A stretch of 64,000 nt of DNA from Eledone cirrhosa. Its lineage: Eukaryota. Of this stretch, positions 1,887 to 52,774 are shown in pieces (within the stretch, counting starts at the first letter, position 1; each line of letters begins with the position of its first letter). Location: the NCBI GenBank assembly GCA_964016885.1, contig OZ024740.1:328290001-328354000 (forward strand), given 5' to 3'. The notes beneath the pieces are model-generated. The model was not told the DNA's origin and did not search any database. It worked only from the letters and a program-made list of their open reading frames with translations. Both the position numbers and the translations under genes were made by a program.

Positions 1887-3674
1887 ATGGCCGAAGCTTC
1901 TTCACCAAAATTCGAAGGAGGAAAGGGGAAGATGAACTTACAGCTTCCCCCTGCCACTGTCACAGTAGCAGAGGTCAAGAAGATAGGTCAGCCAGAGGAA
2001 GAATTCTCTCCACCTGTTAACCGACAACTTGACGTTGCCATGGCAACAACCCAAAGAACCAGCAGCAACAGCAACAACAACAACAATGCGACGGACGAAA
2101 ACAACACCAATAACAATAACAATAACAACAACAAGACCAATAACGGTGACAACAACAACAATGATAACAACAACACCACCAACGACAACAACAACACAAA
2201 CAAACAAAATTTCTCCTTCGCCGAGACGACAAGGAAAACCCTCGACTATCTGCCAGTAGATATAACAAAAGCGAAGGAGCTACTGGCGGATGCGAAAAAA
2301 TATATAGTGTACGGGGAAAATGGTTCATTCACAATCCATTCCCCCCCGGAACTAAAAAGCCAGAGACTCCTAAACACGGTCATGTTTAGGACAATCTCGA
2401 ACAAAAGTAAAAAACCAGCTCAACCATCACAGAGCGAGATAGAGCTGGTTTTAAAAGACGTCATGAAGGACATCACCTTCATTCAGAAGGATAGACTCTA
2501 CGGGAGTCTATCCATTCTCATGAAGGACAGGGACACAGCAGTGAAACTGTCCATCAAACCAATCACATCCACCGCATACACCTTCTACCCTACGTACATG
2601 GGTAGAAGAACACAAAAAATAAAAATCCACACCATCCTGCCGATTATGGACATATGGTGGGTTTTGACAGGTTTTCTGGACCTGGAGGATGACATGCTGG
2701 TGTCCATGGGAAAGGCATCGGGTGACGCGTTCAGTGGAACGAGCCTCGAACTTGTAGTTCAAATGAGGCCCGAAAGGATCGCCCAGATCCCTGAACGCGT
2801 CATACTGGATGATCTAACCTTCATCAACATTACCGTTGAGGGTAGACGGCCCTCGTGTTACCTCTGCGGAACCAGAGGTCACCTGAGGGCTGTCTGTCCC
2901 CAACTTAATAAGAAAACCCCAATCCTGCCTACACCACCAACAACTGCACAACCAACACAATCACCACAACTACCACTACAAAAACAACCACCACAGCTCA
3001 AACCAAAACAAAACAATGTCCAACCCATCCCCTCTACTCAAAAAACAAAAACAATTTCCAAAACACCCGTACCGCAAACACAACCCGAAAATATACCCCT
3101 CCCCTCCAACGCGGAAGATGACCCTAGTTCGTCGTCAGACGAGGAGGAGCACTTCCACACAATCAAAAGAAAAAAAAGAAAACACACCTCAGACACACAA
3201 ATGAAAAAAAACCCTCCCCAAAACATAACACTGACACCAACACAAAAGAGCTCACAACAGCAAACAAAAAACACCACACAAAAACAAAAACATGCATACA
3301 CATACATAAATACAAGAAACAAAAAACTGTTAAACATTGTGTACAACAACAATCTAATAAAAACACAAGGGCCTAACTTCACCCAGGCAGGGGATTTCCC
3401 CCACCTCAAAATGATTAAGGCCCCACAGGACACCTATAAAACTTTAAAAAACAATTTTAAAGAGGACGTGGGTCCCCCCTGCGTCGGGCCCATTAACCGC
3501 GTCCTCCTAAAAAACTATCCCACCCCCTCCCCAAACACCCTCACAACTCCAAGCTCCCCAACCACACAACACACTGATGCCCCCACACTTCCACAAACCA
3601 CCACCCCACCCAACAACCCATCCCCCACCCTAATGGAAATTGTGCAGCCCGATACCCGGGACGCAGAGAGGTAA
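1887..3674 (+). CDS. LINE ORF1 nucleic-acid-binding protein
   Basis: 595-aa open frame with zinc knuckle CYLCGTRGHLRAVC (CX2CX4HX4C), poly-Asn tract, acidic/basic patch SSSSDEEE...KRKKRK and Pro/Thr-rich tail. Confidence 0.88.
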   Translation: MAEASSPKFEGGKGKMNLQLPPATVTVAEVKKIGQPEEEFSPPVNRQLDVAMATTQRTSSNSNNNNNATDENNTNNNNNNNNKTNNGDNNNNDNNNTTNDNNNTNKQNFSFAETTRKTLDYLPVDITKAKELLADAKKYIVYGENGSFTIHSPPELKSQRLLNTVMFRTISNKSKKPAQPSQSEIELVLKDVMKDITFIQKDRLYGSLSILMKDRDTAVKLSIKPITSTAYTFYPTYMGRRTQKIKIHTILPIMDIWWVLTGFLDLEDDMLVSMGKASGDAFSGTSLELVVQMRPERIAQIPERVILDDLTFINITVEGRRPSCYLCGTRGHLRAVCPQLNKKTPILPTPPTTAQPTQSPQLPLQKQPPQLKPKQNNVQPIPSTQKTKTISKTPVPQTQPENIPLPSNAEDDPSSSSDEEEHFHTIKRKKRKHTSDTQMKKNPPQNITLTPTQKSSQQQTKNTTQKQKHAYTYINTRNKKLLNIVYNNNLIKTQGPNFTQAGDFPHLKMIKAPQDTYKTLKNNFKEDVGPPCVGPINRVLLKNYPTPSPNTLTTPSSPTTQHTDAPTLPQTTTPPNNPSPTLMEIVQPDTRDAER

Positions 3675-3698
3675 GTGCCTTTTCTCTTCACCACCAAC

Positions 3699-6600
3699 AT
3701 GGCTATGCTAAGAGTAGGCTGTTTAAATGCGCGTGGCCTGGGCTCAACTTGGAAGCAAGTAATGCTTCTAAATGACCTCAGGTCACAACGTATAGATGTG
3801 ATGGTTATTTGCGAGGCCCGGATCAGCAACGTGCGACAGCTGGCCCCCACCTTTGATGACTTTGAGATGCACGCATCTCTCTGTCAGCCCGGAGGTGGGG
3901 GTGGAGTTGTCGTTCTGCTGCAAAAACATCTGGGTCTCGCAACACAGATGGTGCATTTGGACCCGGAGGGTCGACTAGTGGTTCTGGACCTTGGCAGTGG
4001 TAAAGGCGGAGCGTTTAGGTTGGTAGCCGCCTACGGCCCTTTCGGGTCAATGCGGCCGGACTTCTTCCATCGTCTGGAGACTTTTCTAGGGACGTCCCGC
4101 TCCTTGCTATTAGTGGGGGACTGGAATGGTATCCTAGATGCACGCTGGGACTACGTAGGGGCCTGCCCCGATAGAGAGGGGTGTAATAGCCTCAAAGGGT
4201 TAATCGGTCGATTTGACCTGGCCGATAGATATCGACTAGATTTTCCGACTGCGCCAACCTGGACTTGGGCAAATCGTAGCGGATCATCTAGGTCGTACCT
4301 AGATAGGTTCTTAGTTAGAATTAAGGATAAGGACTTTTTAAGTTGTCCAAAAATGCGCATGGTTGGCTATTCAGACCACAAATTAGTGACCTGCATGGTC
4401 AACCTTGACAGAACTCATAGACAGGGCCCCGGTTACTGGAAGCTCAACTTGTCCTTGCCGGCAAGTAGAGCCTACAGGAATCGGATTAGTACATTAGTTA
4501 AGGAACGGTTGACTGGAGCGATCGTCAACAGCAGGTGGTGGGTATCTCTAAAGAGAGAGATTAGAGTAGTCTCGATAGAATTTAGTAAGGTTCTAGCTGC
4601 GGATAGGAATAGGAAGGAAAGGGAGCTAATAGATAGAGTAGAAGAGGCAATTAGAAGCGGCGACGTGGCCAGAGTGCTAGCGTCGAGAACGGCTTTGAGC
4701 CAGTTTTTCGACGCGAAGCACGAAGGCTGCGTTGTCCGAAGTAAAATACGTGCTCTAGGGAACGAGGGGACCAAAGCTGTTAGCTGGGCCCGCGTGACAG
4801 AGGCCAACAGTGGAACTAAATCCACCATCCGGTCTTTGCGAGACCTGGATGGACGGGCGATTCTTGAGCCTAAGCAGATGTGTGAGGCCTTTCAAAGGCA
4901 CTTTGCCCGACTGTTCGGGAGGGGCGGGGAGCCGGTTGGGAACGTGGACTTCGGTCCATACCTCGACGGCCTGCCGCGCCTCTCGGACAGGGAGGCGAAG
5001 TCCTGCGAGGAGCCGATTTCGGCCGCTGAGATAGAGGACGTGCTGAGCCAATGCGGCAAACGCAAATCCCCGGGTCTCGATGGTCTTCCTTACGAATTAT
5101 ATCTAGCTATGCCGGACTTGTTCCCCGATCTCCTCGAGGCGGTCTACTGCAACTGGCAACAGAACGGGAGAATTCCCTGTACTGTGACCAAGGGCGTAGT
5201 CACGCTAGTGAGGAAGGACGAGAACAAGGGGGACGAAATAAGTAACTTCAGGCCCATAACTCTGCTAAATACAGAGTTACAGATTTTGGCCAAGGTGCTA
5301 GCAAAGAGGTTGGCGCTTGTCGTGGGCAACCTGGTGGGAGATGCGCAGACATGCGCTATCCCGTCCAGGTCCATCCATGACAACCTCCACCTCATGCGAT
5401 ACATCATAGAGAGGGTTGGGAACGAACCCGGCTTTGGTGGGGCTCTGATCAACTTGGATCAATCTAAGGCGTTCGATAGGGTCGACCATGGTTACCTGGA
5501 TGCGGTGCTAGCGGCGGCAGGCTTCGGACCCGTTTTCAGGGGCTGGATCACTGCTATGCACAGCAGCCGCATCTGCTCTAGGGTCAAGGTGAACGGCTAC
5601 CTCTCGGAGCCGTTCAAAATCGCGCGGTCCATCCGACAAGGGTGCCCTCTCTCCTCCCTTCTGTATGTGTTGACTCTCGAGCCACTACTGCGGAAGTTGG
5701 AGTTGTTGCAGGGCATCCCTTTGGAACCGGGATTGCGGAAAGCGGTGTCGGCCTACGCCGATGACGTGACAGTAATGGTGTCGACGGCCTCCGAAATCGA
5801 TGCGGTCGGCACCTTACTGGAGGAGTACGAAAAGTTCACAGGGGCTAAGCTGAACCGGGACAAGTCGATCGGTTTGCAACTCGGCACGTGGAGGGGCAGA
5901 CCGATGCCCTCCGATAGCGTCGTCGGACGCTGGACGGAGGGCCCGGTGAAGTTGCTCGGGGTCTGGTTCGGACCGGACCTCCAGGTGGAGAAAAACTGGG
6001 CGGAGGTTACGAACAGGGTGTTTGCACTGACCCAGAAGTGGGCCAGTTGCAAACTATCCCTGAAAGGTCGGGCGGAGGTGGCGAACACCTACATAGCGTC
6101 CGTCATCTACTACCGCCTGACCGTAGTACCCTGCCCAAGGGAAACCCTCACCAAGATGGAGCGCGCGCTCTTCCAATTCCTTTGGAAGAGGCGGGCTCCT
6201 ATGGTGAGGAGATCCATCTGCTGTCAACACCCTTCGAAAGGAGGGCTGGGGATGCCGTGGCTAATGATGCGTAAACACGCATTAAGGCTACGGCACCTCT
6301 ACGTATTCCTCACCGGACAACCGGTGTGGGCCTCGTTTGTGAGACGAACCTTTCCCAGACTCGTCTCACTCACCGAGCTGCAATCCTGGGTCAAGCAGAG
6401 ACCGAGAAAACTGGGCGCCTGGCACACTGAGTGTGCCCAGGCGCTCACCGCCCTCTGGCAGGCGGATCCGGTTATCAGTGGAGACTCCACCGCAACATTC
6501 TATAGAGGGCTGGTACGCAGCAGGTGCGACGACGCCCTCGGAGAAGCCCTAGACATGGAGGGGGACGAACTGGCCAGCCTGTTCGGTAGGACATTCAGCC

Positions 6601-7136
6601 CGGGACCTATGGACAACTTCCAGAAGTCCCTGGCCTGGCAGTGCTACCGAGGGGCTTTACCCGTTCGAGAAAGGCTCTACAGACACGGGCGCCCGGGTAG
6701 GGACCCCGCCAAAAAGATCTGTCCCAGATGCGTGTGCGACGAGGAAACCGTTGCACACGCATTAGTACACTGCTCGGGCGTAGCCGATCTGTGGGGCTAT
6801 GTCGAACAACTGCTGTCAAGGGTGGGACCGATCCGGTTGACCACCGAGTCTATTGTAATGATCAAGCCGCCTCCCCCCTTCAAAGATGAAGCAGAGGCGG
6901 TGTTTCTGTGCGTAATAGCCATGGCGAAAGAGGTTGTATGGTGGACGCGTCTGAAAGGACTGAGGTCGGGCACCTTTCTCTCTGGCCAACAACTGGTCCG
7001 TTTCTTCCGATATCATTTCGGAAGAAGGATCAGGATGGAGAGAAAGGTGCTGCACCCCAGCTGTTTCTATGAAAGATGGGTGAAAGTGGCGAGAATGGCC
7101 CGTGTGAATGGGCCTTCACTCTACATCAGACTATAG
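3699..7136 (+). CDS. LINE ORF2: APE endonuclease + reverse transcriptase + C-terminal Cys/His finger
   Basis: EN motifs LNARGL, GDWN, YLDRF and SDH. RT motifs KSPGLDG, FRPITLLN, LDQSKAFDRV, RQGCPLS and YADD. C-terminal CPRC...H...C. First ATG is at 3699 (the track starts at GTG 3675). Confidence 0.95.
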   Translation: MAMLRVGCLNARGLGSTWKQVMLLNDLRSQRIDVMVICEARISNVRQLAPTFDDFEMHASLCQPGGGGGVVVLLQKHLGLATQMVHLDPEGRLVVLDLGSGKGGAFRLVAAYGPFGSMRPDFFHRLETFLGTSRSLLLVGDWNGILDARWDYVGACPDREGCNSLKGLIGRFDLADRYRLDFPTAPTWTWANRSGSSRSYLDRFLVRIKDKDFLSCPKMRMVGYSDHKLVTCMVNLDRTHRQGPGYWKLNLSLPASRAYRNRISTLVKERLTGAIVNSRWWVSLKREIRVVSIEFSKVLAADRNRKERELIDRVEEAIRSGDVARVLASRTALSQFFDAKHEGCVVRSKIRALGNEGTKAVSWARVTEANSGTKSTIRSLRDLDGRAILEPKQMCEAFQRHFARLFGRGGEPVGNVDFGPYLDGLPRLSDREAKSCEEPISAAEIEDVLSQCGKRKSPGLDGLPYELYLAMPDLFPDLLEAVYCNWQQNGRIPCTVTKGVVTLVRKDENKGDEISNFRPITLLNTELQILAKVLAKRLALVVGNLVGDAQTCAIPSRSIHDNLHLMRYIIERVGNEPGFGGALINLDQSKAFDRVDHGYLDAVLAAAGFGPVFRGWITAMHSSRICSRVKVNGYLSEPFKIARSIRQGCPLSSLLYVLTLEPLLRKLELLQGIPLEPGLRKAVSAYADDVTVMVSTASEIDAVGTLLEEYEKFTGAKLNRDKSIGLQLGTWRGRPMPSDSVVGRWTEGPVKLLGVWFGPDLQVEKNWAEVTNRVFALTQKWASCKLSLKGRAEVANTYIASVIYYRLTVVPCPRETLTKMERALFQFLWKRRAPMVRRSICCQHPSKGGLGMPWLMMRKHALRLRHLYVFLTGQPVWASFVRRTFPRLVSLTELQSWVKQRPRKLGAWHTECAQALTALWQADPVISGDSTATFYRGLVRSRCDDALGEALDMEGDELASLFGRTFSPGPMDNFQKSLAWQCYRGALPVRERLYRHGRPGRDPAKKICPRCVCDEETVAHALVHCSGVADLWGYVEQLLSRVGPIRLTTESIVMIKPPPPFKDEAEAVFLCVIAMAKEVVWWTRLKGLRSGTFLSGQQLVRFFRYHFGRRIRMERKVLHPSCFYERWVKVARMARVNGPSLYIRL

Positions 7137-8186: not shown

Positions 8187-8399
8187 CGTTTCTGAATTTG
8201 TTTAGCAAGATTCTTTATCTGAAATCGTGTGTTGAAACCGATATTGTTATACTTTGGGAGGGTCATGTTGCCAATAAGAAACACACGCACCAGTTGCTTT
8301 CACTTCAATTTAATTTAATATATATTTATAAATTTACAAATTTATAAATTTCTGGTTGGTTGGTTGGTTCCACAACCAGATAGTTGTTTATATATATAT

Positions 8400-8444
8400 A
8401 GTCATAGTTCTTTCGTCACACACTCTGTGACCTCTTCAGTGACT
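8400..8444 (-). ncRNA. Minimal hammerhead ribozyme motif (family A)
   Basis: Reverse complement of 8558-8602. Confidence 0.72.
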
Positions 8445-8557
8445 GGGGATTTCTTTCTTCGTTTCTGTGCCTTTCCTTTCTTCTATCCTACGCCATTTTT
8501 GAAAAATGGCGTAGGATAGAAGAAAGGAAAGGCACAGAAACGAAGAAAGAAATCCCC

Positions 8558-8602
8558 AGTCACTGAAGAGGTCACAGAGTGTGTGACGAAAGAACTATGA
8601 CT
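8558..8602 (+). ncRNA. Minimal hammerhead ribozyme motif (family A)
   Basis: AGTCA-CTGAAGA-G-GTCACA gagtg TGTGAC-GAAA-GAAC-TA-TGACT: 5-bp stem I, 6-bp stem II with one extra nt after A9, minimal stem III. Confidence 0.72.
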
Positions 8603-8825
8603 ATATATATATAAACAACTATCTGGTTGTGGAACCAACCAACCAACCAGAAATTTATAAATTTGTAAATTTATAAATATATATTAAATTAAATTGAAGT
8701 GAAAGCAACTGGTGCGTGTGTTTCTTATTGGCAACATGACCCTCCCAAAGTATAACAATATATATATATATATATATATATAATTAGAAAGCGGTAGATT
8801 ATGATGCACCCTGCACACACGCACG

Positions 8826-12836: not shown

Positions 12837-13609
12837 GCCTAGAATATATGGATCGCTCTACGAATTTGCGTTATCCTTAAGCAGAGGCCATGCAAATCTC
12901 TGTATTGTTCCATTGTTAGTGTATGTACTGCCGAAGTAGTATGTGTTAGTAATCTGTTTATATATTCTAAATATCTTTTGAAATTGGAGGCGTCATCTCT
13001 CCAATATAACATTTCCAATTTTTTTTCCTGTACTACGAAATACAATGGTATTCAGTCTGACTTGGCAGTGTTGAGATGAAGAACACAAAACACAAAACAA
13101 AACAAAGCAAAAAAATGAAAAATAAGATACATGAAACATAGAGCAGGTAAATTCCAACAGGTAATTGATAGTTTTTTTTTTTCTTTTTTGTATTTTCGAA
13201 TTCCGGCTATGAAAGAAAAGCTAATCAAATAAGAAAAATCAACAACAACAAGACACTGCTCTTTGTGTCTGCAGAACAATCCTACTGTTGTAATTAAATG
13301 GAATGTAACATATAGATTTGAACATAATGTTGAGAAAATACTATATGGTGAGGTGGGTAAACAGAAAACCTAGAATAGAGTAAAACATAAAGACAAAACA
13401 TAGGCGTGATGAAATAATGTTTCTGGCATGGCAATTTAAATTAAAGTAAGAGTGAAGTTATACAACAATAACAACAACCACACTCAGGGAAATGAAAAAC
13501 ACAGAGATATGTTTCGTATTTGCTTCTTAGTTTCCATCGCTGATGCTTTTCTGATAGATTCCGCCCGGAAGACAAATGCATTCCACCATATTTATCATTA
13601 ATTCATTCT

Positions 13610-18390: not shown

Positions 18391-18485
18391 GTAGAACACT
18401 GGAAGGTAATATCCGTAGTGGTAGAGCACTCAATCCATGCGACGAGTTGGGTAGAAGTGGTTACACAACAGTTAGTTCACCATAC

Positions 18486-18523
18486 CGAGAACAATTGTTT
18501 CACCTTAGCGGATCCTCAGCTCG
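18486..18523 (-). ncRNA. Minimal hammerhead motif (family C)
   Basis: CGAG-CTGAGGA-tCCgctaaGGt-GAAA-CAATTG-TT-CTCG, with palindromic stem III. Confidence 0.7.
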
Positions 18524-18689
18524 TAATGGACATGGTTATACGGAACAGGAAGGACAACCGTACGAACGCGCATGCGCAGAAACCATCACTTCACACAGGC
18601 AATACTAAAAAGCGTGCGAGAGGTGTAAGGGAGATAACTGCGAAAGTCTGAAAAGTTTCTAGTTGATAAGAAAATTAGGATGTTGTGAT

Positions 18690-20800
18690 TCAATCCGGAG
18701 CTTTGTAGTTATGTAAGAGGTGTTTCGAGACGTGTGGACAACGTGTGAAGAATTCATTTCTCGTGTTTAGGCAATCACTATTGCATAATCTCTTTAGAAT
18801 ATTTATTCGTTCATCAATACATAGTCCACACGACGGATTTCCCCTTGCGTATGGCTTGGACTTAGTGATGGGTTTCCATTGAATGGAGTAGTCTATACTT
18901 GAGTCCTTGAGGGAACATACGTGGCTCGCGAGTTTCGTAGATGAACGTCTGTCCGGGTACCTAAAGGTCGACTGGTGGTTCAGGAAGCGTTCCTTAAATC
19001 GGCCCTCCGCCATGCCCACATAGGATTAGACCTCCTGTGGTTGATTTGGTCGATTGGAAGTGACCACAGCTTCATAAATTACAGCGGGTGTGTTGCATTT
19101 CTGTTGAAGGGGACAAGCTTCGGGCTTACGGCAAGAGCACCCTGGTGTGGTGTTGCTCTTAGGTCTGTTGGTGATGTGGGCCTTCATGTTCTTAGCGCAG
19201 GAGTATCCTAGTTTTACTTTGTGTCGGTTAAAGACAGAGCGGTATTTATGACCTATGGAAAAGTGTCTATCTAAGAGGGTTAGAATTTTTTTGCCTCCAT
19301 TGGTTTTAACGTTGAGTGAGAAGGGAGGAGAGAACCAGATAGTTTGTCTATTGTTACGCTTTCTTTTCTCATTGCTGTTGTTGATAGAGGGAAAGTAAGT
19401 GAGAGGTTGCGAGAAGCCGCTGTTAGCTACCGCCGTGTTATAGTAGGGTGCCACCCCGTCAAATATAGCCTTATTAGAGGAGAGGTTTGAGATTCTAGTA
19501 CTGATATTATTTACGAAGTTTGTAAAAAACAGTGGGAGGGTGGCATGAGTCCTTGTGAATGTAATTGAGTTTTTCGTTTAGCTTATGGAAGGGTCTGTAG
19601 GTGTGTGTGCGAAGGTCTAAATTAATGTCTATGAAATCTACGCTAGAGAGGTTGATAGCTACTGTTATCCTAAGTCCCAACTCATTGAAGGTAGAAGCTA
19701 AGTCTTTTTTAAACCGGTCGAGGTCGTTACCACTTTTATGGCTCGATAAGGTCAGTCCGTCGTCGCGGTATATTCCCGTGTGGAAGTCCGGGAATCTAAC
19801 ACGTAATATATCTAAAATAAATAAGCTAACCAAGTCGCATACGTCAGCACTGTCAAACGATCCCATGGAGACGTCGAATAGATCTTAAGTTGTTGACTTC
19901 TTTGCCCAGGCTACTCCGTCATTGAAGAGGAGGGTTTTCCGGCAGTGAGCGATGATTTCCCTGTCTAAACAATCGACGGTAGTGTAAGTGGTAGCGAAGT
20001 CCAACGCTTTGTTTAACAGGTTCTCTGAGATCGACGGGTAAAAACCAACAATGTCGAACTGTGTGAACTCCGCTTTTTTGGATTTGAAGGAGTTGAACAA
20101 CTTAATTACGGAGTCGCTGTTCTCCCACTGGGACACGTTGGACATGGTCCTAATGGTCTTAACTATGTTTCTGAGTATGGCCTTACTGACTAGTCCCATA
20201 TCTATGCGTGTCGGGTTTATTAGTCTACATGTTGGGTTAGAAGTAGAGTCTACCTTGTGATCTTTCAGGGTGAGGAACGCCTCCCGCTTAGCTAGAGATT
20301 GTAGCTTCTTATCTACCTTAAGGGCGGCGGCAAGTTCTTTGGCTTCTGTATTAATGTTGTGGTAGGCCATAAGGTTAGCTTTCTTATATTTGGAAGTAAT
20401 AGCGTTATGGGCCACGTGGCGGAAAGTGGTGTTGTCGACTTCGTAAATATTATTAGTTTTGTCGGAAAGAACGAAAGTATTATTAGAGGACCTAAATTTC
20501 TTAATCACATTTCTAAGTTTAGTTTGAAAGGTGTTAGGTTGTTTGCGAAAGGAAATGTTAGCGACTAAGTCAACAAGGTCCGCCCCGAAAAGAGCAAGTT
20601 CAGTTACCTTAGGAGGGTAGGCCCTCGATTTCAGGTTGAAGGTGTTATTGGTGCCTGCAATTTTGCCGTCAAAAGCTAGGGCTCGCCATCTTAAGCGCCT
20701 GACGATATATTCCGCTTTTTGTAGGAGAAGCTTCTGGTAAACATGGTTGGGGGGGAGTGGGAATGTTCTTCAGGGAGTAATCCAGTTCGTAGAAATCCAT
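18690..20800 (-). pseudogene. PLE RT + GIY-YIG polyprotein with frameshifts and stops
   Basis: In order: MDFYELDYSLKNIP…RRLRWRA, SDKTNN, TLKDHK…CRLINP, FDIVGFYPSI, MGSFDSA, GIYRDDGL, WFSPPFS, CSCRKPEACPLQQKC, VIYEAVV…YVG, CGLC…CPH. Confidence 0.9.
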
Positions 20801-21094
20801 ACTGACGTTGATATATTCTAAAGAGATTATGCAATAGTGATTGCCTAAACACGAGAAATGAATTCTTCACACGCTGTCCACACGTCACGAAACACCTATT
20901 ACATAACTACAAAGCTCCGGTTTGAATCACAACAACATCCTAATTTTCTTATCAACTAGAAACTTTTAGGACTTTCGCAGTTATCTCCCTTACACCTCTT
21001 GCACGCTTTTTAGAATTGCCTGTCTGAAGTGACGGTTTCTGCGCATGCGCGTTCGTACGGTTGTCCTTCCTGTTCCGTATAACCATGTCCATTA

Positions 21095-21132
21095 CGAGCT
21101 GAGGATCCGCTAAGGTGAAACAATTGTTCTCG
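21095..21132 (+). ncRNA. Minimal hammerhead motif (family C), in the inverted arm
   Basis: Same motif as 18486-18523. Confidence 0.7.
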
Positions 21133-21159
21133 ATATGGTGAACTAACTGTTGTGTAACC

Positions 21160-21528
<369 letters not shown>

Positions 21529-21861
21529 AATATACATATATAATATGTATGTATATATATATATATATATATAAATATTTACACATACACCAATTAAACA
21601 AAGTCACAGGTATATATGTGTTTTGGCAACTATTCACGATGTGGCTCATTGAAGAATTAATAAATTAAGTAATCAGAGCAAAATACTATAGAGTAAAGCA
21701 TGTCCAGAGAATTATTTGATAATGTATATACATCATTTCTGCTCCCAATCAGCATAATTAACCACACAAAAAATCAATTAGACCAGGCTAAAAGAAAAAA
21801 GGCACCTATGAAGAAAAACTAAATAAATACGCCACAGCAGCGTCTTCGCGGCCAACCGCTA

Positions 21862-22437
21862 TAGAATAGTTACCCAACATTTCAACAGCACGTGGAAATT
21901 AATTAAATATAGGTCAACCATACATAATTAGGTAAAAATTAAAGTTAGAAATGCTTATATACATACCAGGATTAAATCACTCAATCCCGACCCATGGGAT
22001 TCGCTCACACTTTCTTTAATTGGTGTATGTGTAAATATTTATATTTAATAATCTCCCATAAGGTTAAGATACAATTTGGGCGATATTGGGCTGCGCTTTC
22101 TAGCAACCAACCCACTCGCCGTAAGCAACCAAACACACCCTTCCTGACTTGACCACGCCACGTCACAGTTCTCAACCATTTTGAATTCGTGTTTGGCGGG
22201 GGCCACTTCGGAATATAATCTGTCCTAGCGAGTTTGTCCCCTGAAGAGCTCTAAACTCGAGATTTATCCTTAATAAGATATCTCGAAATGTGAGCGAAAC
22301 CCGTGGGTCGGGATTTAGTGATTTAATCCTGGTATGTATATAAGCATTTCTAACTTTAATTTTTACCTAATTATGTATGGTTGACCGTATATTTAATTAA
22401 TTTCCACGTGCTGTTGAAATGTTGGGTAAATATTCTA
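21862..22437. repeat. Inverted repeat with ~148-bp arms (PLE terminal repeat, family D)
   Basis: 21862-22009 vs 22289-22437. Confidence 0.85.
22237..22313 (+). ncRNA. Hammerhead ribozyme with extended stem II (family D)
   Basis: TCCC-CTGAAGA-GCTC…TCGAGAT…ATCTCGA…GAGC-GAAA-CCC gt GGG-TC-GGGA, with a GUC cleavage triplet. Confidence 0.85.
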
Positions 22438-22476
22438 CCAAAGTACTCAATACTTAGGTTAATAGGAACGAGTAGG

Positions 22477-22572
22477 ACCCCGACGGCTGAGCTCAAGCCG
22501 TTTCGACGGCTAATTCTGGACTAAATGAAAATTTTTATCCTGGTATTTGAATAGTCGAGCTTCTCAGGGGGT
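22477..22572 (-). ncRNA. Hammerhead motif family E, core CUGAGAA (C3/A8 mismatch, probably impaired)
   Basis: Inverted copy of 23566-23661 that differs at core position 3. Confidence 0.6.
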
Positions 22573-23565
22573 AATTCCATATATGGTCAAAGTGATTGTC
22601 ACAGGGATTGGTCAAAAGTTTGTAGTTGAGGCATAATAATTCTATGATGGCAATTTGTGGAGGGAAGGGGTAGCTAAACCTGCCAGTAGGAGAAAGAGGG
22701 AGAGGGGTGGAGGAGATCCATTCATGCATTGATAGTGCCGGCTACAGCTGGGCGTGAGGTCAAAGAAGATACTAGGGAGGGGGAGGGGAGGAAGTCGAAA
22801 CAGTAAGTAGAACAATAAGGGGTAAATATATAGAAAAATACTGATCAGTATATATATTTTTTTTTTGGGGGGGGGGGGTCTGAATTAATTTTCCGTATCA
22901 AATTTTACATCTACTATGTACGAGCTTTTATGTAGCTTGCACTAGAACTTTTGTATCGTAGCGGCACTCTTAGAGATAGTATTAGTATTCTTTTTCGGGA
23001 CTCTGAATTATTATTTCGTATTAGTTTACTTTTTTGCACTGGGTGGTTGCTGGCCTTGTGCCTGGGGTAGAAACTTTTATTATTTCGTGGTAGTTTCTTT
23101 AGTATTTTGGCCCCTCACTTGTTGACCCGTCACCGTAAGACATACTCGGTTTATTACTTATACCTCTTAAAAGGGTTTCATTTTAATTCCATCCCAACTA
23201 GTATATTTCTTTAGCCTAGCAATAGTGAGAGACTTAGGTCGTAGTAACCAGAAATTGTTTATTTTTTTTACATTTAATTGCTTTTTAACACTCTCAGTAT
23301 TTTTCTATATATTTACCCCTTATTGTTCTACTTACTGTTTCGACTTCCGCCCCTCCCCCTCCCTAGTATCTTCTTTGACCCCACGCCCAGCTGTAGCCGG
23401 TACTATCAACGCATGAATGGGTCTCCTCCACCCCTCTCCCTCTTTCTCCTACTGGCAGGTTTAGCTACCCCTTCTCTCCACAAATTGCCATCATAGAATT
23501 ATTATGCCTCAACTACAAACTTTTGACCAATCCCTGTGACAATCACTTTGACCATATATGTAATT

Positions 23566-23661
23566 ACCCCTTGAGAAGCTCGGCTATTCAAATACCAGGA
23601 TAAAAATTTTCATTTAGTCCAGAATTAGCCGTCGAAACGGCTTGAGCTCAGCCGTCGGGGT
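23566..23661 (+). ncRNA. Hammerhead ribozyme with U3-A8 core (family E)
   Basis: ACCCC-TTGAGAA-GctCGGCTA…TAGCCGtC-GAAA-CGGC ttgagctca GCCG-TC-GGGGT. Confidence 0.8.
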
Positions 23662-23671
23662 CCTACTCGTT

Positions 23672-23750
<79 letters not shown>

Positions 23751-33052: not shown

Positions 33053-33394
33053 TATATACACAAATGAAAGTTTAGTAAAATCGAAGTTTCGGTGGTGGCC
33101 AAGCTAGCGATATACAATTAGGTTTGTGCAGCAAAGTACTCAATAGGGTGTATCACCCTGAGTAATTAATATACATTAGATAGCTAGCGTGACAATTTAT
33201 ATATATATATGTGTGTATGTATATATATATATTGTTATACTTTGGGAGGGTCATGTTGCCAATAAGAAACACACGCACCAGTTGCTTTCACTTCAATTTA
33301 TTATATATTTATAAATTTATAAATTTACAAATCTACAAACTTATAAATTTCTGGTTGGTTGGTTGGCTCCACAACCAGATAGTTGTTTATATAT

Positions 33395-33439
33395 AGTCAT
33401 AGTCCTTTCGTCACACACTCTGTGACCTCTTCAGTGACT
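33395..33439 (-). ncRNA. Minimal hammerhead motif (family A)
   Basis: Same as 8558-8602 except stem III reads GGAC. Confidence 0.72.
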
Positions 33440-33740
33440 GGGGATTCCTTTCTTTGTTTCTGTGCGTTTCCTTTCTTCTATCCTACGCCATTTTGTTTCT
33501 GTGTGTGTGTTGTGTGCTCGGTTTGCGCATGTGCCACATCCGTGTGTCTGTATGTGTTTGTGTTCATTTATCTATTTGTTTATTTATTTAATTATTTATT
33601 GTTGGTTGGTTGTTTGTTCTATGTGTGTGTGTGTTTTCATTTTATCCTGTGTATGTTTTCATTTTGTCCTTAATTGTAAGTTGTTTGTTCTATGTGTGTG
33701 TGTGTTTTCATTTTGTCCTGTGTGTGTTTTCATTTTGTCC

Positions 33741-36700
33741 TTAATTGTAAGTTGTGATGTTGCTGTTCCACTCATATTTTCTATTTAATTTTGGTTGTAA
33801 TTCTTTTATGCTTACTGCCTCTGTAATTTGCCTAAACATTGCATCTTTTCTGTGTGTGGATTCTATTTTTATTTCTATGTTCTCTAATCTACCCCTGTGT
33901 TCTATCTTAGCATGTTGGTAGAGCACAGATGATTCTTTATTATCTTGAAGGTCTCGCCAGTGTTCATTTATTCGTTCCCCTATACTACGAGCTGTCTCAC
34001 CTATGTACACTATATTTTTGTTTCTACATTGTCCTTCAGTACATCTTATGCTATACACTACATTTCTAGTTTTACAGTTAATATGGGGGCTTATTTTACA
34101 GGTTATACATTTCTTATCTATACATGAGGGTCTTTGGAACGGGTATGTCTGTCTAATAAGTGTTTTTACGGAGGTACCTGGTCTTTCTACTAACTTAATA
34201 TTGAGTTTATGTTTGTTTAGGGCCCTTCTAAATTTGTAGGCTAGTTCGCCTCTAGGGGTTGTATTGATGAACATTACACTCTGGTATTTATTGCTATCAT
34301 ACCATGAGTTTATTCTATTGGCCTTGTTCCTAGTTCTTTCTATTCTATTCCAAAATTTGCTCCTATACAAGGGGGCAGGTCCCATTTATGTCATTATTTA
34401 CCATTTTTTCCCATTTGGTTCTGGCTCCTCTATACACTCTGATTCTATCTCTCTGATTGTAGCCAGAGAACTGCATACGGTGGATGAAGTGTTGTATGTG
34501 TCTCTCTAGTTCTTCGGGGTTGCACATGCGGGACACATTTCTCATCACCCGTACCAAATCCGCAATCAGTATGTTGATTTTGGTATGGTCCGAAATGGCC
34601 GAGTTTCGGTGGATCAGATGTTTGGAAGTCATGGGTTTGGCATAATGGGAATGGAGGATTTGTTTTTGGTTGTTAATGGTATCTAACCAGAGCTCTGTGT
34701 CTAGTACAGGTAATCGATGGTTGGGGTGTCTACTTGGGTAGTCTATAGTAACTCTAATGCTCTGGTGGATGGAGTTTGCTATTTGCTGGATGCTTTCCAT
34801 TGTGTTTTTCTCTAGTTCCTGACTGTTCTTTAGTGGGGGTGTCTTAACTACGATGTTTATATCATCTACGTAGCGGGAGTACATAATCAGGGTTAAGCTG
34901 TCTTCTAATTGTTCTTTAAGTTTTTGTTTAAGTCTACTGTCCCACCATACCATGAATAAGTTAGCTATGTCGCCTGCAATGCTAACACCAATGGCTGCTC
35001 CTTCCTCTTGGGCATATGTTTTACCATTAAATTTGAACATATGTTCCTTAAGGGTTAATTTTATGCTGGCCCCTACCGCATGTGCAATCATTTTCTTCAG
35101 TTCATCGTGGTTTTCGGGTGTCCGTATGGCTCTGGTCCACCCGTTCCATCTATCCGTGTGGGTTTTCTTGGCCATTGAGGTAATGGTAGGTGGTCTGCCT
35201 CTTGCTGGTCTTGTAGGGCACAGGTTGCTAAGGTCATAAGTGTCTAGGTAACTATTACTATGGGTAAGCTTAAGTAGAAGTCCCAGCTCACTGGTATCAA
35301 TCCCACGGAACTCAACCTTGCTCTCGCTGATCATTTCTACGCATTTCTCCACAGCAAAATCCACGTCAATAGATGGATACAGGGACACAACATCCATACT
35401 GCCTATTATGCAGTTTGTTAGGTCCCCAGATCGGTTACCCGCGTCGATTCTGCTGAGGAGGTCCTCCGTGCTGTCACATACATCTGGGGACATCTCAATG
35501 ATGGGGCGTATGATCAGGGAGAGGAAGTAGGACAGTCTGTAGTTACTAGCAATGTTAGCTCCACAGACTGGCCGTGTTGGTGGTCCGGCGACAGTGTCCC
35601 AGCCCGTTTTATGGTCTTTTCGAAGTCCATACAACGCCGGCACGTCATTGTTCCAGGCCTGGAAGTTGTTGGCAGTCCTTTTGTTGGGCTGCATTATATT
35701 CGTCCACATCACCATATGGGCATTGAGGGCTTTTTCTCTATCCTCATGCTCCTGTGGTGTTACCTCTCTTGTGTTAGTGATGTGGGGTTGCATTGCCTGG
35801 ATGTAGTTTGGCAGGCTGTCAACCGACATTCTGCCAGACTTGTCTGTTGGAAAGCATGCTATCTCTCCATTACGCGAGCGCTGAATGAGCTTACGCAAGC
35901 CATTTGCAGATTTTTCTCCCAGTTGCTGGGCCTCTATTCTATTATGCTTCTTGCTATACTGTTCTATAATATTTCTAAGTTCGGATTTAGCTATACTAAA
36001 TTGTGCTTCTGTTTGTTCATCGACCTGCGACGGCAACTGCGTGCGTTTGTTAAATGGTAAAGTCGTGGCGTGGACTCGTCGCAGGTCGAATGATTTATCG
36101 GAGGGATTATAAAATGGAGAGTTCCAGGCTGCTGCTTTATGTGTACTAGTGCTATTGTTATTGTTAGTTGTGTTGTTTCTATTTCTATTTCCACCAACAG
36201 CCTCATGGTTGTTTCTATGTCTCTCATAATTACTCCTGTCTCTTTCCACTGGCTCAATGTTGTTATCTACCCTATTTTGTGTGTCTGTGTGTTCGTCTTG
36301 GTTATTCTCTTTGTCCTTAGTCTCCCATCTCCTTTTCCTTTTAATCCTATTACTTTCCCTTATTTCTCTGATTTCTGTGCTACTGTCATTACTTGTTTTC
36401 TGTGTCTGTGTGTTTGTTAAGATTGTGGTGGTGGTGAGAGGCATTGAATGCGTGTGTGTTGTTGTTGATGTGTGCTGTTGTTGATGTGTGTTGTTGTTGT
36501 CTCCGTGTGTGTTATCGTTGTTGTGTGTGTTGTTATTGTTGTTATTGTTGTTTGTGTCTGTTGTTGTTGTATCTGGGTATGTTGCTATTGTTGTTGTTGT
36601 TGATTTGTGTGTTGTTGTTATTGTTGTTTGTGTCTGTGTGTCTGTTGTTGTTGGGATGTGTGTTGTATATGTGTGTGCGTATATTGTTGCTTTTGTTTTT

Positions 36701-37298
36701 GATGCTCCAACGTAGATTTGTAAATGATTTTTCTATTTCTGACAGACAACTAATCATATTTACCTTCTTGAATGTCGCAAATTTGGACGGTAGACATAAC
36801 ACAGACATTTCATTATTATCTATTTCCGTGTTCCCATAAATGTTGGTATTTTTGTTGTTGAACTCTTCTGATAATGAGGTGTCGGCCATGTTGATACCGT
36901 CAATTTTGTCGGGATATCTATTGGTATACTCTATAGTATCCTGATTTAGCTTTGCCTGTTTAAGCCACTTTAGTTTCCTGTTAAAGTGCTTATCACATTC
37001 TTGAGTATTGTACTGTTCTTCGGGGCGTATAAGGCTTATAAATATTAGTTTTTCTGTTGGTGTGGTGATTTTAGCTATTTCTTGTATTAGGTTACGCTTT
37101 TGTTTTTCTTGATGACTTAATTCTCTATAGATCTTCTTTTTTTATGTTTAGAATTAAAGTTCGTTTTAGCCTATCTGCTTGTTTTTTGGTGAGTTGTAAT
37201 CTTCTAACGTCGGTATTGATGGTGTTGGTGTAGATTCTGGAAGTGGCGCACAGCTTTATGAAATGTAGTTGTCGAGATGTTATGGTTTTTCGTAGACA
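33741..37298 (-). pseudogene. PLE polyprotein (N-terminal domain, RT, Cys linker, GIY-YIG) with a few frameshifts
   Basis: LHFIKLC, LCLPSKFA, PTDKSG, YGLRKDHK…PTRPVCGA, MDVVSLYPSI, GAAIG, RYVDD, LPVLD, CIDKKCITC, VVYSIRC…YIGETAR. An extra C in a C-run near 34371-34375 splits RT from EN. Confidence 0.92.
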
Positions 37299-37963
37299 AT
37301 AAGCCCCCATATTAACTGTAAAACTAGAAATGTAGTGTATAGCATAAGATGTACTGAAGGACAATGTAGAAACAAAAATATAGTGTACATAGGTGAGACA
37401 GCTCGTAGTATAGGGGAACGAATAAATGAACACTGGCGAGACCTTCAAGATAATAAAGAATCATCTGTGCTCTACCAACATGCTAAGATAGAACACAGGG
37501 GTAGATTAGAGAACATAGAAATAAAAATAGAATCCACACACAGAAAAGATGCAATGTTTAGGCAAATTACAGAGGCAGTAAGCATAAAAGAATTAAATAG
37601 AAAATATGAGTGGAACAGCAACATCACAACTTACAATTAAGGACAAAATGAAAACACACACAGGACAAAATGAAAACACACACACACATAGAACAAACAA
37701 CTTACAATTAAGGACAAAATGAAAACACACACAGGACAAAATGAAAACACACACAGGACAAAATGAAAACACACACACACATAGAACAAACAACCAACCA
37801 ACAATAAATAATTAAATAAATAAACAAATAGATAAATGAACACAAACACACACAGACACCCGGATGTGGCACATGCGCAAACCGAGCACACAACACACAC
37901 ACAGAAACAAAATGGCGTAGGATAGAAGAAAGGAAAGGCACAGAAACAAAGAAAGGAATCCCC

Positions 37964-38008
37964 AGTCACTGAAGAGGTCACAGAGTGTGTGACGAAAGGA
38001 CTATGACT
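37964..38008 (+). ncRNA. Minimal hammerhead motif (family A)
   Basis: AGTCA-CTGAAGA-G-GTCACA…TGTGAC-GAAA-GGAC-TA-TGACT. Confidence 0.72.
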
Positions 38009-38588
38009 ATATATAAACAACTATCTGGTTGTGGAACCAACCAACCAACCAACCAGAAATTTATAAGTTTGTAGATTTGTAAATTTATAAATTTATAAAT
38101 ATATAATAAATTGAAGTGAAAGCAACTGGTGCGTGTGTTTCTTATTGGCAACATGACCCTCCCAAAGTATAACAATATCGGTTTCAACACACGATTTCAG
38201 ATAAAGAATCTTGCTAAACAAATTCAGAAACGAAATATATATATATATATATATATATACATACACGCAGAAAGTAATTTGCATAGATCAAGAGAGAACC
38301 TAGGGAACGGAAATTAAGAGTGGCGCAAAAGAGAGATGTAGAAGGTGATGAAGAGTGAAAGGGAGAGGCAGATTGACAGGAACAATAGAGATGGAGGTGA
38401 ACGGGAGATATAGTGAAAAAAACAGGTGAAAAAACAAACACAAAGTGATATACTTCCCTGTCAGATTGAAAAGGTAAGAGTTGAAGTAAGAGATAAAAGA
38501 CCTGCCAGCCATCTTAAAGCAGGGTGCTGAAGCTTGTCATAATATCTATTGTAGATTAGAAAGGTGATAGATAGGGGTAGTTATCAAC

Positions 38589-39663: not shown

Positions 39664-39695
39664 TATATATATATATATATATATAAGAAATATGC

Positions 39696-39791
39696 CCCCT
39701 ACGGCAGACCTCAAGCCGTTTCGACGGCTATTTCTGGACTAATGTAAGAGTATTTTAGTCTGGTAAATAAATGCCCGAACTTTTCAAGGGG
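39696..39791 (-). ncRNA. Hammerhead with U3-A8 core (family E), GUA triplet
   Basis: CCCC-TTGAAAA-G…C-GAAA-CGGC…GCCG-TA-GGGG. Confidence 0.72.
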
Positions 39792-41299
39792 TACTTCCTT
39801 ATATGGGAAGATTGTAGTTGTCAAGAGGATTGGTCGAGCATAGAAGGTGAAATCTACACGGCAAATTCTAAGGAATGCGTATGAAAGTAGGCCAGTGGAG
39901 GTTAGCGAAAAAAGGTTTCTTTAGAAAGTGGAGGAGGGACGTTTTAGAAATAGTAAATCAAAAGCGATTAACTTCGCACAAAACATCGTGTCCTCAAACA
40001 ACAAAAGTCACAACCCCTATGGAAGAAACAACCTACAAATTAGTGGAGAGCCGACCAGGAGGTGTAACTGCCCCGATAGATCTACGTGCCCCCTCAACAA
40101 CAGATGCCGAGAACGTAACGTGATCTACCAGTGCAACGTAAGGACGGACTCCGCCAACAAAGCTTATATAGGATTAACCGCTTGTGACTTTAAGACCCGG
40201 CTTGTGACTTTAACACCGACATACGTTCCGAAACCCAGTCTGGCGACATGCTGCCACCACACTTTCGGGCCATATCTGGGACCTCCAAGATAATAATATA
40301 ACTTACCATCTTACTTGGAGCTTACTGTCCAGAGCCAACTCTTACACGGGAGGACGCCGTCCGCGTAACTTATGCTCGGAGGAAACATTACAAATGCTGT
40401 TTACGAAGGATCAACTCCTAAACAAAGAAGACAAACTGGTAACTGCATGCAAACACAGATTGCGGAAGACTTACCTCGCTCTCAATCCCCTTAACGATCC
40501 GGGTGGGTAGACTAGGGCTGAAACACCTCACTTGCCGTATAAGATAGGGTAAACCCTACTTATATAGGTAGATGTACCTCTTTCCTTTTCCTCTATGTTT
40601 TCTCCTTCCCTTTGTCTCTTCCTATCACTTCTTTCCACCACCGAATTTCATCCTCGTTCGTTTCTTTGTGTTTTTCCCCCTTTCGCCTACCCGAGGCAGC
40701 CCATCGGACCTCTTTAGTCTCAGTACACCCACCCCAGTAACTTACAGATAGCACTTGCCGATTACGCTATACTAACTATTTATAGAAGCTGTGTTAGACC
40801 CCAGAGATGTGGTATTAATTTTTAATTCTATATTTTCAATAATTCTCATCTAGCAACACATTCTATAGCTTTGGCCGAAATAGCAGCACCAACTAAATAT
40901 AGCAGCTGTGTTAGACTCCTTAGTTTTATTTCACTTCTCACTTTCCAATCTTACATTCTGATACATCTTTCTCTCATTTTTTATTATATTCTCTTTTATT
41001 ATATTTTTTCATTGTCCCCTAATCGCTTTTGATTTACCAATTCTATAACGGCCCTCCTCCACTTTCTAAAGAAACCTTTTTTCGCCAACCTCCACTGGCC
41101 TACTTTCATACACATTCCTTAGAATTTGCCGTGTAGATTTCACCTTCTACGCTTGACCGGCTCTACCCCCTGCCCTATCGTTCTACAGGCAAATTCAGCC
41201 ATCCCCACCCCGCACCCACTGCCATGATAGACTTTTCTGTGTCTGCTACAAATTTTGACCAATCCTCTTGACAACTACAATCTTCCCATATAAGGAAGT

Positions 41300-41398
41300 A
41301 CCCCTTGAAAAGTTCGGCTATTTATTTACCAGACTAAAAAAACTCTTACATTAGTCCAGAAATAGCCGTCGAAACGGCTTGAGGTCTGCCGTCGGAGT
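41300..41398 (+). ncRNA. Hammerhead with U3-A8 core (family E), GUC triplet
   Basis: ACCCC-TTGAAAA-GttCGGCTATTT…GACTAA…TTAGTC…AAATAGCCGtC-GAAA-CGGC…GCCG-TC-GGAGT. Confidence 0.75.
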
Positions 41399-41488
41399 CA
41401 TACTTTCTCCTATTACCCACTCTACTACCCTAAGTATTGAGTACACTGGTACGTTATGTTCCATCTGGTTCCTTACCAATACTCCTTC

Positions 41489-41547
<59 letters not shown>

Positions 41548-50699: not shown

Positions 50700-51535
50700 C
50701 GAGGTGTGTCAGAAAAGTTCCAGGACTGATGTCACAAAAGATTTATTTCAAACCGAATCTTCACACTAAGAGTTTTCTCATTCAAAGTAATCCCCCTGGA
50801 GTCTAATGCACTTTTCCATCCTTCTCTTCCACGCTTGCATGCACTCCTGGAAGGATTCTTCCGGGATCCTCCGCAGTTTCGTCGTCACGGCCTTTTTGAT
50901 GTCGTCCACGTCTTCAAAACGGGTCCCCTCCGGGTCGTACTCGAAGATCCATAACTCATCACCGGTGATGACTGTCCCTAGCAAGTCTGGTTCGGTTTCA
51001 AGACGCTCGAGGATGTCTTGGCACACTTGCATGCGTCGACCCTTCTGGTCATCGTTCAGCAGTTTTGGCACCATCTTCGCGCAGACTTTCCGCATGTCCA
51101 AATCTTCAGTGAGAATTTTCCAGACGCTGTACGGATTCATGCCCAGCGCATTTGCCATCAGTCAGCTGACGATCGCTACGCACCATCTGCCTGACACACT
51201 GAACGTTGACCTCAGTACTGGTTGTTGAGGGCCTTCCGCTCCTGGGGTCATCTTCCACGTCATCTCGTGACATCGTCTCATCTCAATACACTTGCTGCAG
51301 CAATCCCAGTGCTTCTGACGGAGTTTTCCCCAACCGTCCCAGAAGCTTCAAGTTTGTTCGTTGCTCTGTGCTCATTGCTTGACGACCTGAAACAGAGGAC
51401 ATGTATATAAAATTATGAAGAAAAAAGTTTGATCGCTGCAGAGAGCTAAGATTACAGTTACATACTCCAGGGGGATTACTTTGAAGGAGAAAACTCTTTT
51501 GTGACATCAGTCCTGGATCTTTTCCGACACACCTC

Positions 51536-51802: not shown

Positions 51803-52774
51803 ATATATATATATTAATATTATTATTATTATTATTATACTTGGGGAGGGTCATATTGTTTTAATAATATTGCCAGAAATAATGACAGAACACACGCACT
51901 GTTTGGTTGGTTTTCGCTTCTGCATCTTTTATATCTTCATAGTTAATTTATTTGGCAATCAATGTTTATCATTGACTGGCCATCGGTTAAAAATACAGAT
52001 ATAAATATATATATACTAGACCTGAAAAATGCGCAAGCTCAAAAGAGCCACAGAATGTTATCATAAACCTTCAAAAGTGTGGGACTAGAGTTGTTGCTCA
52101 AAAATATTGTAATCATTATCTATCGTACACTCTGTGGGTCCTTTTATAAAAAAGAGACACATAACGAACTCAAGACGACACGATAATTATTTAAGTGAAT
52201 TTATAATATAGAATTCGGTTTAAGTGTATTTCGTATTAATCATGAAGGTTTATGATAACATTCTGTGGCTCTTTTGAGCTTGCGCATTTTTCAGGTCTAG
52301 TTTAATATTTTTTTAAGGCAACGCTTGTAATAACTCTAGTTAAACATGATATATATTAATAATAAATTATCGTTGTAATGTCATTAGATTACACCGTGTA
52401 ACAAAAAAATATATTTTTCTCTGTTCCTGGCTTGTAACCACTTTTTTCGTGTTGCTTAGGTCCCAAATAAATAAAAAAAGTGCTATTAAACAGTTAAAAG
52501 TTTGGGTTTGTAAAAATTCTAAGCTATTCACTAGAATTATTTGTATGCTGGATTTTACGTTGTATGTAAGTTTAATTTGCTTATGTTAAATGATATTTAA
52601 AATATATGTTTCAGGTTAAATTAAAATTATAAAATAAAGAGTAATACCTAAATAAAATTATAAAAGTGCAATAAAGTATAAAATTGTTAAAAAGTGGATT
52701 AAAGAGATTTATTGATACTGGATTTTCGCACCCTGAATGAAGGGTAAGTTGTGTTTTAAGCATTCGTATCCAGG

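Follow-up and report, generated by a model that had tools for sequence, protein, structure and literature searches.

A candidate U3-A8 hammerhead ribozyme in a Hydra-clade Penelope-like element of Eledone cirrhosa: lineage history of its 3-8 pair and truncation within stem II

Introduction

The hammerhead motifs closest to the one described here are found in Penelope-like elements (PLEs). In the model proposed for these elements, transcription of tandem repeats is followed by hammerhead release of a unit RNA, its possible circularisation and target-primed reverse transcription at (TA)n (PMC4209133, PMC6765202). PLE hammerheads are slow in vitro (PMC4209133), and the role of the motif in endonuclease-bearing PLEs has been called unclear, with the suggestion that it may just ride along (PMC8557442). 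Natural covariation from C3-G8 to U3-A8 was published in 2011 as rare examples (Perreault et al., PMC3088659), and U3-A8 hammerheads in PLEs were published in 2014 (Cervera and De la Pena, PMC4209133). A natural CUGANAA hammerhead was reported as inactive (PMC8490949), and when every double mutant was scanned in one study, activity at the 3-8 pair was restored by no change other than G3-C8 (PMC9901934).

Here, we analyse a type I hammerhead motif in a 64,000-nt stretch of the Eledone cirrhosa genome (the window) and the family of elements to which it belongs. As described in PMC4209133, the Cercyon elements of Schistosoma mansoni, with ~1,300 U3-A8 matches in that species, share with this family the type I architecture, the terminal repeat, the U3-A8 pair, a long helix II, a palindromic loop III and inverted pairs. 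In contrast to Cercyon, the present motif has a 56-nt stem II with internal loops, a 5-bp stem III and no extra base between positions 9 and 10.1, its element belongs to the Hydra clade, and a long-lived C3·A8 stage as well as U3·G8 stages can be traced on its trunk. Hydra-clade hammerheads (Craig et al. 2021, PMC8557442) have in common with ours the protein clade, the (TA)n target and the 3′ position as well as inverted 5′-truncated arms and a one-end tail, whereas the Hydra rows in File S2 of that paper are all CUGANGA with short stems, and none of these rows has Y3·A8 or a comparably long stem II. The U3-A8 cases are presented in PMC3088659 without lineage history or mismatched intermediates. 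The large helix III of fungal and protist PLE hammerheads is likewise stable and would permit monomer cleavage, but those motifs belong to endonuclease-less telomeric elements for which the account in PMC4209133 describes no core variant, while the present element is from an animal and bears an endonuclease.

The original prediction had regarded the U3-A8 variant as possibly overlooked. A U3-A8 core would indeed be missed by searches for CUGANGA only; as a kind, the variant has already been published (PMC3088659; PMC4209133). In the literature covered by our search, which did not extend to Lunse 2017, Przybilski and Hammann 2007 or Nelson and Uhlenbeck 2008, neither a lineage passing through C3·A8 nor truncation at stem II was described. 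By itself, the U3-A8 core is ordinary.

Results

Anatomy and predicted fold of the motif

The motif at 23566-23661 has the type I architecture, with three helices round a junction and the open ends in stem I (Table 1), and it carries the type I core bases U4, G5, A6 and A9, G12, A13 and A14, A15.1-U16.1, H17 and G10.1-C11.1. The perfect stems I and III, the GUC site and the UUGAGAA core of the original prediction are all present, as is UUGAAAA in both copies of the diverged relative (41305-11 on the plus strand and 39787-81 on the minus strand). Stem II had been described as branched and is instead an interrupted helix with internal loops. Its CGGCUA/UAGCCG helix stands as proposed, but the inner (distal) helix proposed with it is imperfect in the 23566 copy, where it contains an A·G mismatch, and decays in later subfamilies. 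Stem III is a G+C-rich 5-bp helix in all 13 subfamilies, not the absent or 1-2-bp helix III of minimal PLE hammerheads. The palindromic hexamer of loop III (23642-23650) is retained in all but one of the 13 subfamilies and is common to families A and B (see below), even with a stable stem III, and might allow pairing between two RNAs.

A strict type I descriptor matched three sites in the window (23571, 22567 and 39787) and none in each of 60 shuffles, and it skipped the 41305 copy because of a stem I mismatch there. No Rfam hammerhead family was found among all 29 matches at E ≤ 10 in the region 20900-23670, nor among the 150 of 269 matches listed for the whole-window scan, and inspection by eye recognised no canonical loop-loop tertiary motif between stems I and II. 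The predicted lowest-energy fold of the 23566 copy is not the hammerhead (z −0.52). The hammerhead fold is predicted to lie 2.8 kcal/mol above the ensemble, and a competing hairpin is predicted to pair the 3′ arm of stem II with the 5′ arm of stem III. The hammerhead motif at 23566-23661 is real, and it is a candidate ribozyme, likely a weak or intermittently active one.

Table 1 Features of the hammerhead motif at 23566-23661 and of related copies in the window
Feature	Position	Strand	Basis or remark
Type I hammerhead motif, subfamily A6 (U3-A8, by probable reversion from C3·A8)	23566..23661	+	sequence, lineage trees
Stem I	23566-70/23657-61	+	sequence
5′ core U3 U4 G5 A6 G7 A8 A9 (UUGAGAA)	23571..23577	+	sequence, genome counts
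Stem II, 56 nt: G10.1-C11.1, small internal loop, CGGCUA/UAGCCG, imperfect distal helix	23578..23633	+	
G10.1-C11.1 pair	23578/23633	+	
Stem II helix CGGCUA/UAGCCG	23581-86/23626-31	+	
G12 A13 A14, stem III with 9-nt loop, U16.1, C17	23634..23656	+	
GAAA	23634-37	+	sequence
Stem III, 5 bp	23637-41/23651-55	+	
GUC with C17	23656	+	predicted cut 3′ of 23656
5′-truncated arm of Hydra-clade element	22844..23676	+	ORF lost; 3′ untranslated region up to a (TA)n run
Inverted arm of the same insertion	22437..22844	-	hammerhead 22572-22477 (stray C3, stem II change), part of tail
Older copy (A1b)	39970..41496	+	remnant of the endonuclease at 39970-40583; at 41300-41398 a hammerhead with UUGAAAA and a single mismatch in stem I; tail up to 41496
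A1b copy, inverted arm	39680..39970	-	decayed hammerhead 39792-39695 (A17, damaged stem II)
Palindromic stub of sister family B	21255..21455	.	two hammerhead 3′ halves

A Hydra-clade element carries the motif

The genome searched was the 3.0-Gb assembly, in which inverted pairs of the motif flank remnants of a single ORF and a Hydra ORF lies upstream of the motif at many loci. An intact unit (locus L302, G000:C1:11225500-11232700) consists, in order, of a hammerhead, a 190-nt leader, a 719-aa ORF, a 3′ untranslated region, a second hammerhead and (TA)n; its two predicted cut sites are 3,118 nt apart, and it holds a single RT-GIY-YIG ORF. With domains assigned by eye, the protein shows RWR, DKT, CNCPDRSIC (a CxCx5C linker) plus a GIY-YIG-type domain at the C terminus with CNLC (CxxC) and CKH (CxH). 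The described marks of the Hydra clade are RWK, DKT, a CxCx5C linker, and CxxC and CxH round a conserved E and N (PMC8557442), so that RWR for RWK is one conservative change. By eye, the protein resembles Hydra-1_Obim, and insertion into (TA)n, inverted truncated arms and a one-end tail are all found for the family. A Pfam search with the family's ORF (L118 protein) gave no match, and a protein search with the family ORF returned relatives at 35-52% identity. The diagnostic motifs and the by-eye likeness place the family in the Hydra clade of PLEs; Naiad identity was rejected on domain order. In L302, a frame is open from the loop of hammerhead stem III to the start codon (L302:3379-3580; 67 codons, no stop).

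U3-A8 is the majority state of the family

The 3-8 pair is Watson-Crick (U-A) in the 23566 copy, C·A in about a quarter of core-bearing copies and U·G in the oldest stage of family A. A 21-letter pattern with positions 3, 7 and 8 free, which misses subfamily A9, gave 3,614 exact matches, including 2,038 with U3-A8, 1,478 with C3·A8 and 64 without A8; by eye, eight of these 64 are C3-G8 and 28 are U3·G8. Subfamily A9 accounts for 42 of the first 100 of the 4,673 matches to a pattern that includes it, and all 42 are U3-A8. When the whole core was left free, 5,434 matches were obtained, and the first 100, all on contig C1 and with inverted partners that are not independent, were scored by eye. 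Position 3 was U in 79 and C in 21, A8 was present in all 100, and U4, A6 and A9 were likewise found in 100 and G5 in 98, while position 7 varied (77 G, 13 U, 8 A and 2 C). U3-A8 is thus the majority state of the family and about one in four core-bearing copies is mismatched C3·A8, contrary to the outcome named as a possible refutation of the original prediction, that most copies be unpaired at 3/8. A higher share of C3·A8 (41%) was rejected because the underlying pattern missed A9. In the contigs of one DNA study, U-to-C at position 3 accounts for ~25-28% of depth, which serves as a consistency check only, since sequencing depth does not measure copy number and these runs may come from the sample behind the assembly itself.

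The 3-8 pair was lost and regained along one lineage

Trees were built with FastTree from ORF DNA and protein with the hammerhead excluded, one of them from 28 hand-picked copies. The ORF trees form a ladder, with FastTree support of 0.70-1.0 along the trunk in the 28-copy tree, on which A0 is U3·G8, A1, A1b and A2 are U3-A8, A3, A4 and A5 are C3·A8, and A6, A7, A8 and A9 are again U3-A8. Terminal branches shrink from 0.063 in A0 to 0.003-0.004 in most A9 copies, and the C3·A8 stage takes up 0.05-0.086 of the ~0.20 substitutions per ORF site on the trunk (25-43%). Subfamilies carry linked markers, the order of which agrees with the ORF trees. A tree of the hammerhead region only was poorly resolved and partly at odds with the ORF trees, and was set aside.

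The 41300 copy falls in A1b and the 23566 copy in A6, so U3 would have been lost and then regained between them, and U3 at 23571 is on the evidence of these trees a reversion. The two types, which had been taken for two subfamilies conserving U3-A8, are therefore early and late stages of one lineage, separated by a long C3·A8 stage according to the ORF trees and linked markers.

Sister family B has ~60-70% protein identity to A and is mostly U3-A8 (276 matches), with a few old C3-G8 and U3·G8 copies (three of each among the old B0 copies). Rooting with protein relatives as outgroups placed the root between A and B, where the root state rests on a few old copies and FastTree support only. Given this root and the C3-G8 pair in all Hydra hammerheads of the published table, the change from G8 to A8 most simply arose twice, separately in B, a reading based on few B0 copies. 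A Watson-Crick 3-8 pair was regained three times (A0 to A1, B0 to B1 and A5 to A6). Only transitions occurred at positions 3 and 8, a class of change favoured by mutation bias, and this weakens the case for selection at the 3-8 pair; we estimate a small, though not negligible, chance that the C3·A8 stage ended neutrally in a paired state.

The hammerhead shape shows signs of selection

All four bases occur at position 7 as subfamily states, whereas the other core bases are unchanged; positions 4, 5, 6 and 9 were fixed in the pattern used for this subfamily comparison and left free in the core-free pattern (5,434 matches). At one stem II pair, family B has A-U, some A0 copies have G·U and later A copies have G-C, and two further stem II pairs have changed on both sides between A1/A2 and B. 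In a set of 34 hand-picked copies, the number of cells paired and the covariation score exceeded all 500 shuffles, the count of double-change pairs did not (197 of 500), and stems I and III had no double-sided change; the covariation events are few and mostly reflect the one A/B split. Subfamily A9 has gained one stem II pair and, in stem III, a G·U that makes the competing fold weaker, and in four of four A9 copies the hammerhead is the predicted lowest-energy fold (0.8 kcal/mol). The C3·A8 stages fold worst, with predicted medians of 3.1-3.9 kcal/mol for copies with intact helices. The free position 7, the near-fixed core, the stem II covariation and the best-folding youngest subfamily together support selection on the hammerhead shape in the source lineage. 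The earlier description of the variant as selected is upheld to that extent, but not for U3-A8 as a state kept throughout, as the C3·A8 stage intervenes. Strong selection for catalysis is disfavoured by the length of the mismatched stage, by the inactive natural CUGANAA hammerhead (PMC8490949) and by the double-mutant scan with its sole G3-C8 rescue (PMC9901934).

Most sampled truncated copies end within stem II

The 3′ half of the hammerhead has 54,002 exact matches in family A and 3,107 in family B and is ~10 times as frequent as the 5′ half. Taking as reference the third base before G12, 24 of 30 sampled A arms end 0-22 nt upstream of it and 30 of 30 sampled B arms end 1-26 nt upstream; these end points lie within the 3′ arm of stem II. 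Once past the core, arms are lost at only ~7% per 100 nt, with 69 of 69 extending to 100 nt, 64 to 200 nt and 53 to 400 nt. Arms with and without the ~90-nt tail share the stop zone, and tail arms also stop earlier, with 12 of 24 usable partners ending in or near the tail. In the DNA-study contigs, depth is far greater over the 3′ half, depth again being no copy number; the same depth test on the canonical long-stem family at 22236 gave noisy data and no step at the 3′ half.

The simplest reading is that stem II stalls reverse transcription as a structural block. Alternatively, synthesis may have aborted early, a set distance from the short end, an option left by the coupling of partner arms and the noisy data from the 22236 family. 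Amplified short masters were rejected as a source, given the scatter of the end points and the presence in the stubs of markers from several stages. If stem II is the block, the pile-up of truncations links an RNA structure to the origin of one of the commonest short repeats of this genome.

Discussion

We propose, with moderate confidence, that the terminal-repeat hammerhead is a weak self-cutter, the cutting of which was dispensable in the C3·A8 stage before selection restored core and fold. A tandem transcript would be cut at each hammerhead into 3.1-kb unit RNAs, and the unit RNA, possibly circularised, would undergo target-primed reverse transcription at (TA)n. Selection on source elements appears to have retained the three-helix shape and core bases 4, 5, 6, 9 and 12-17, and wobble and mismatch at the 3-8 pair seem to have been tolerated over long periods, which suggests that fast cleavage is not required for retrotransposition. 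The youngest subfamily would then have re-tuned the fold, and the long stem II seems to halt the reverse transcriptase of the element, which would account for 3′ stubs in their tens of thousands. We count in favour of weak self-cutting the unit with its 719-aa ORF, the core pattern, the ladder, the stem II changes and the A9 fold, together with the inactivity of the natural CUGANAA hammerhead and the slowness of PLE hammerheads in vitro.

The same record might be left by a ribozyme that had to be efficient in every stage, even C3·A8 and U3·G8 cores being brought to sufficient speed by contacts from the long stem II, from an extended stem I or from the protein that the element encodes. Consistent with this idea, the core bases other than 3, 7 and 8 are fixed throughout the C3·A8 stage, all four observed 3/8 states are pyrimidine-purine, and the stable 5-bp stem III means that a monomer could fold; natural U3-A8 cores also exist, and the swap is reported active in vitro (PMC3088659). 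We nevertheless find efficiency in every stage unlikely, given the inactive natural CUGANAA core (PMC8490949), the low values of single core mutants (PMC9901934) and the poor folding of the C3 stages, in which C3 is predicted by RNAalifold to strengthen a slipped pairing with the G-run of stem I. Conversely, catalysis could be lost or incidental, the 3′ end serving as a binding or stop signal for reverse transcriptase and the 3/8 changes being neutral drift. The 1,478 C3·A8 matches over 0.05-0.086 substitutions per site mean that protein binding by itself could have maintained the motif, and the long mismatched stage, the conservation between A and B of the tail 3′ of the motif, the retention in inserted copies of sequence on both sides of the predicted cut site, the concentration of truncations in stem II and the success of Naiads without canonical hammerheads (PMC8557442) all fit such a signal. 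A purely non-catalytic role is still improbable in our judgement, as a free position 7 with fixed 4, 5, 6 and 9 is the pattern of a catalytic core, the 3-8 pair was restored three times, and the youngest burst added a stem II pair and a better fold. That the motif is a chance look-alike in repeat DNA, as the lack of an Rfam hammerhead match and the non-hammerhead lowest-energy fold of this copy might suggest, is highly implausible; the strict descriptor has no match in 60 shuffles, and the thousands of copies in the canonical terminal-repeat position and the C3-G8 relatives refute it.

A bolder account, which we regard as doubtful, is that of a fossil series through C-G, U·G, U-A and C·A on the trunk, in which the C·A stage multiplied with a dead ribozyme while stem II stopped the telomerase-related reverse transcriptase and gave rise to ~50,000 palindromic mini-insertions. 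If true, the motif would act foremost as a structural signal read by protein and only secondarily as a catalyst, and stem II would be like a template boundary. Within a single sequence context, the family provides a dated natural series of cores, one long stage of which should, judging from published data, not cut. The series makes it testable whether such elements need self-cutting to retrotranspose and documents compensatory change in nature across a catalytic base pair.

Additional copies and repeats in the window

The 23566 copy belongs to a truncated insertion and is inert. Its arm is 95% identical to another genomic copy over 860 nt, and the two arms of the insertion (22437-23676) have nine differences in 383 nt, one of them in stem II. 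The inverted arm at 22477-22572 had been put forward as a natural C3/A8 control, and it is indeed C3/A8, with C3 at 22567, but it is a confounded control because of the second change in stem II. This C3 sits on late-A6 flanking markers and is probably a stray change rather than a mark of a C3 subfamily. The 39787 copy is decayed, with A at position 17 and two stem II changes, and both halves of the family B stub are cut off inside stem II, one of them with the tail.

Several other repeats lie in the window. A canonical C3-G8 hammerhead of another repeat family (22236-22314, plus strand) also has a long interrupted stem II; that family has at least 40 close genomic copies, with Hydra-like ORF pieces near two of them, and its inverted stub (near 21870-22010) likewise stops within the 3′ arm of its stem II. 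Another Hydra-clade element, a broken one at 18453-21165 with ORF pieces at 18723-20769 on the minus strand and inverted arms, has an ORF ~35% identical to that of family A and, by eye, a minimal canonical hammerhead (21095-21132, plus strand). A Penelope-like element of another clade at 33229-38178 has long inverted repeats and, on the minus strand, RT (34363-36732) and GIY-YIG (33741-34385) regions, for which Pfam RVT_1 and GIY-YIG scored slightly under the cut-off; its ends are related to a perfect inverted repeat at 8241-8761 (260 bp, 1-nt spacer). An apparently intact non-LTR retrotransposon occupies 1887-7136 on the plus strand, with frames of 595 and 1,153 aa (endonuclease and RT, by eye). 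Pieces resembling DNA-transposon genes, by eye, lie at 50778-51161 and 52760-53371, and a U6 snRNA match, either gene or pseudogene, is found at 12842-12942 on the minus strand (57.4 bits against an Rfam gathering score of 44).
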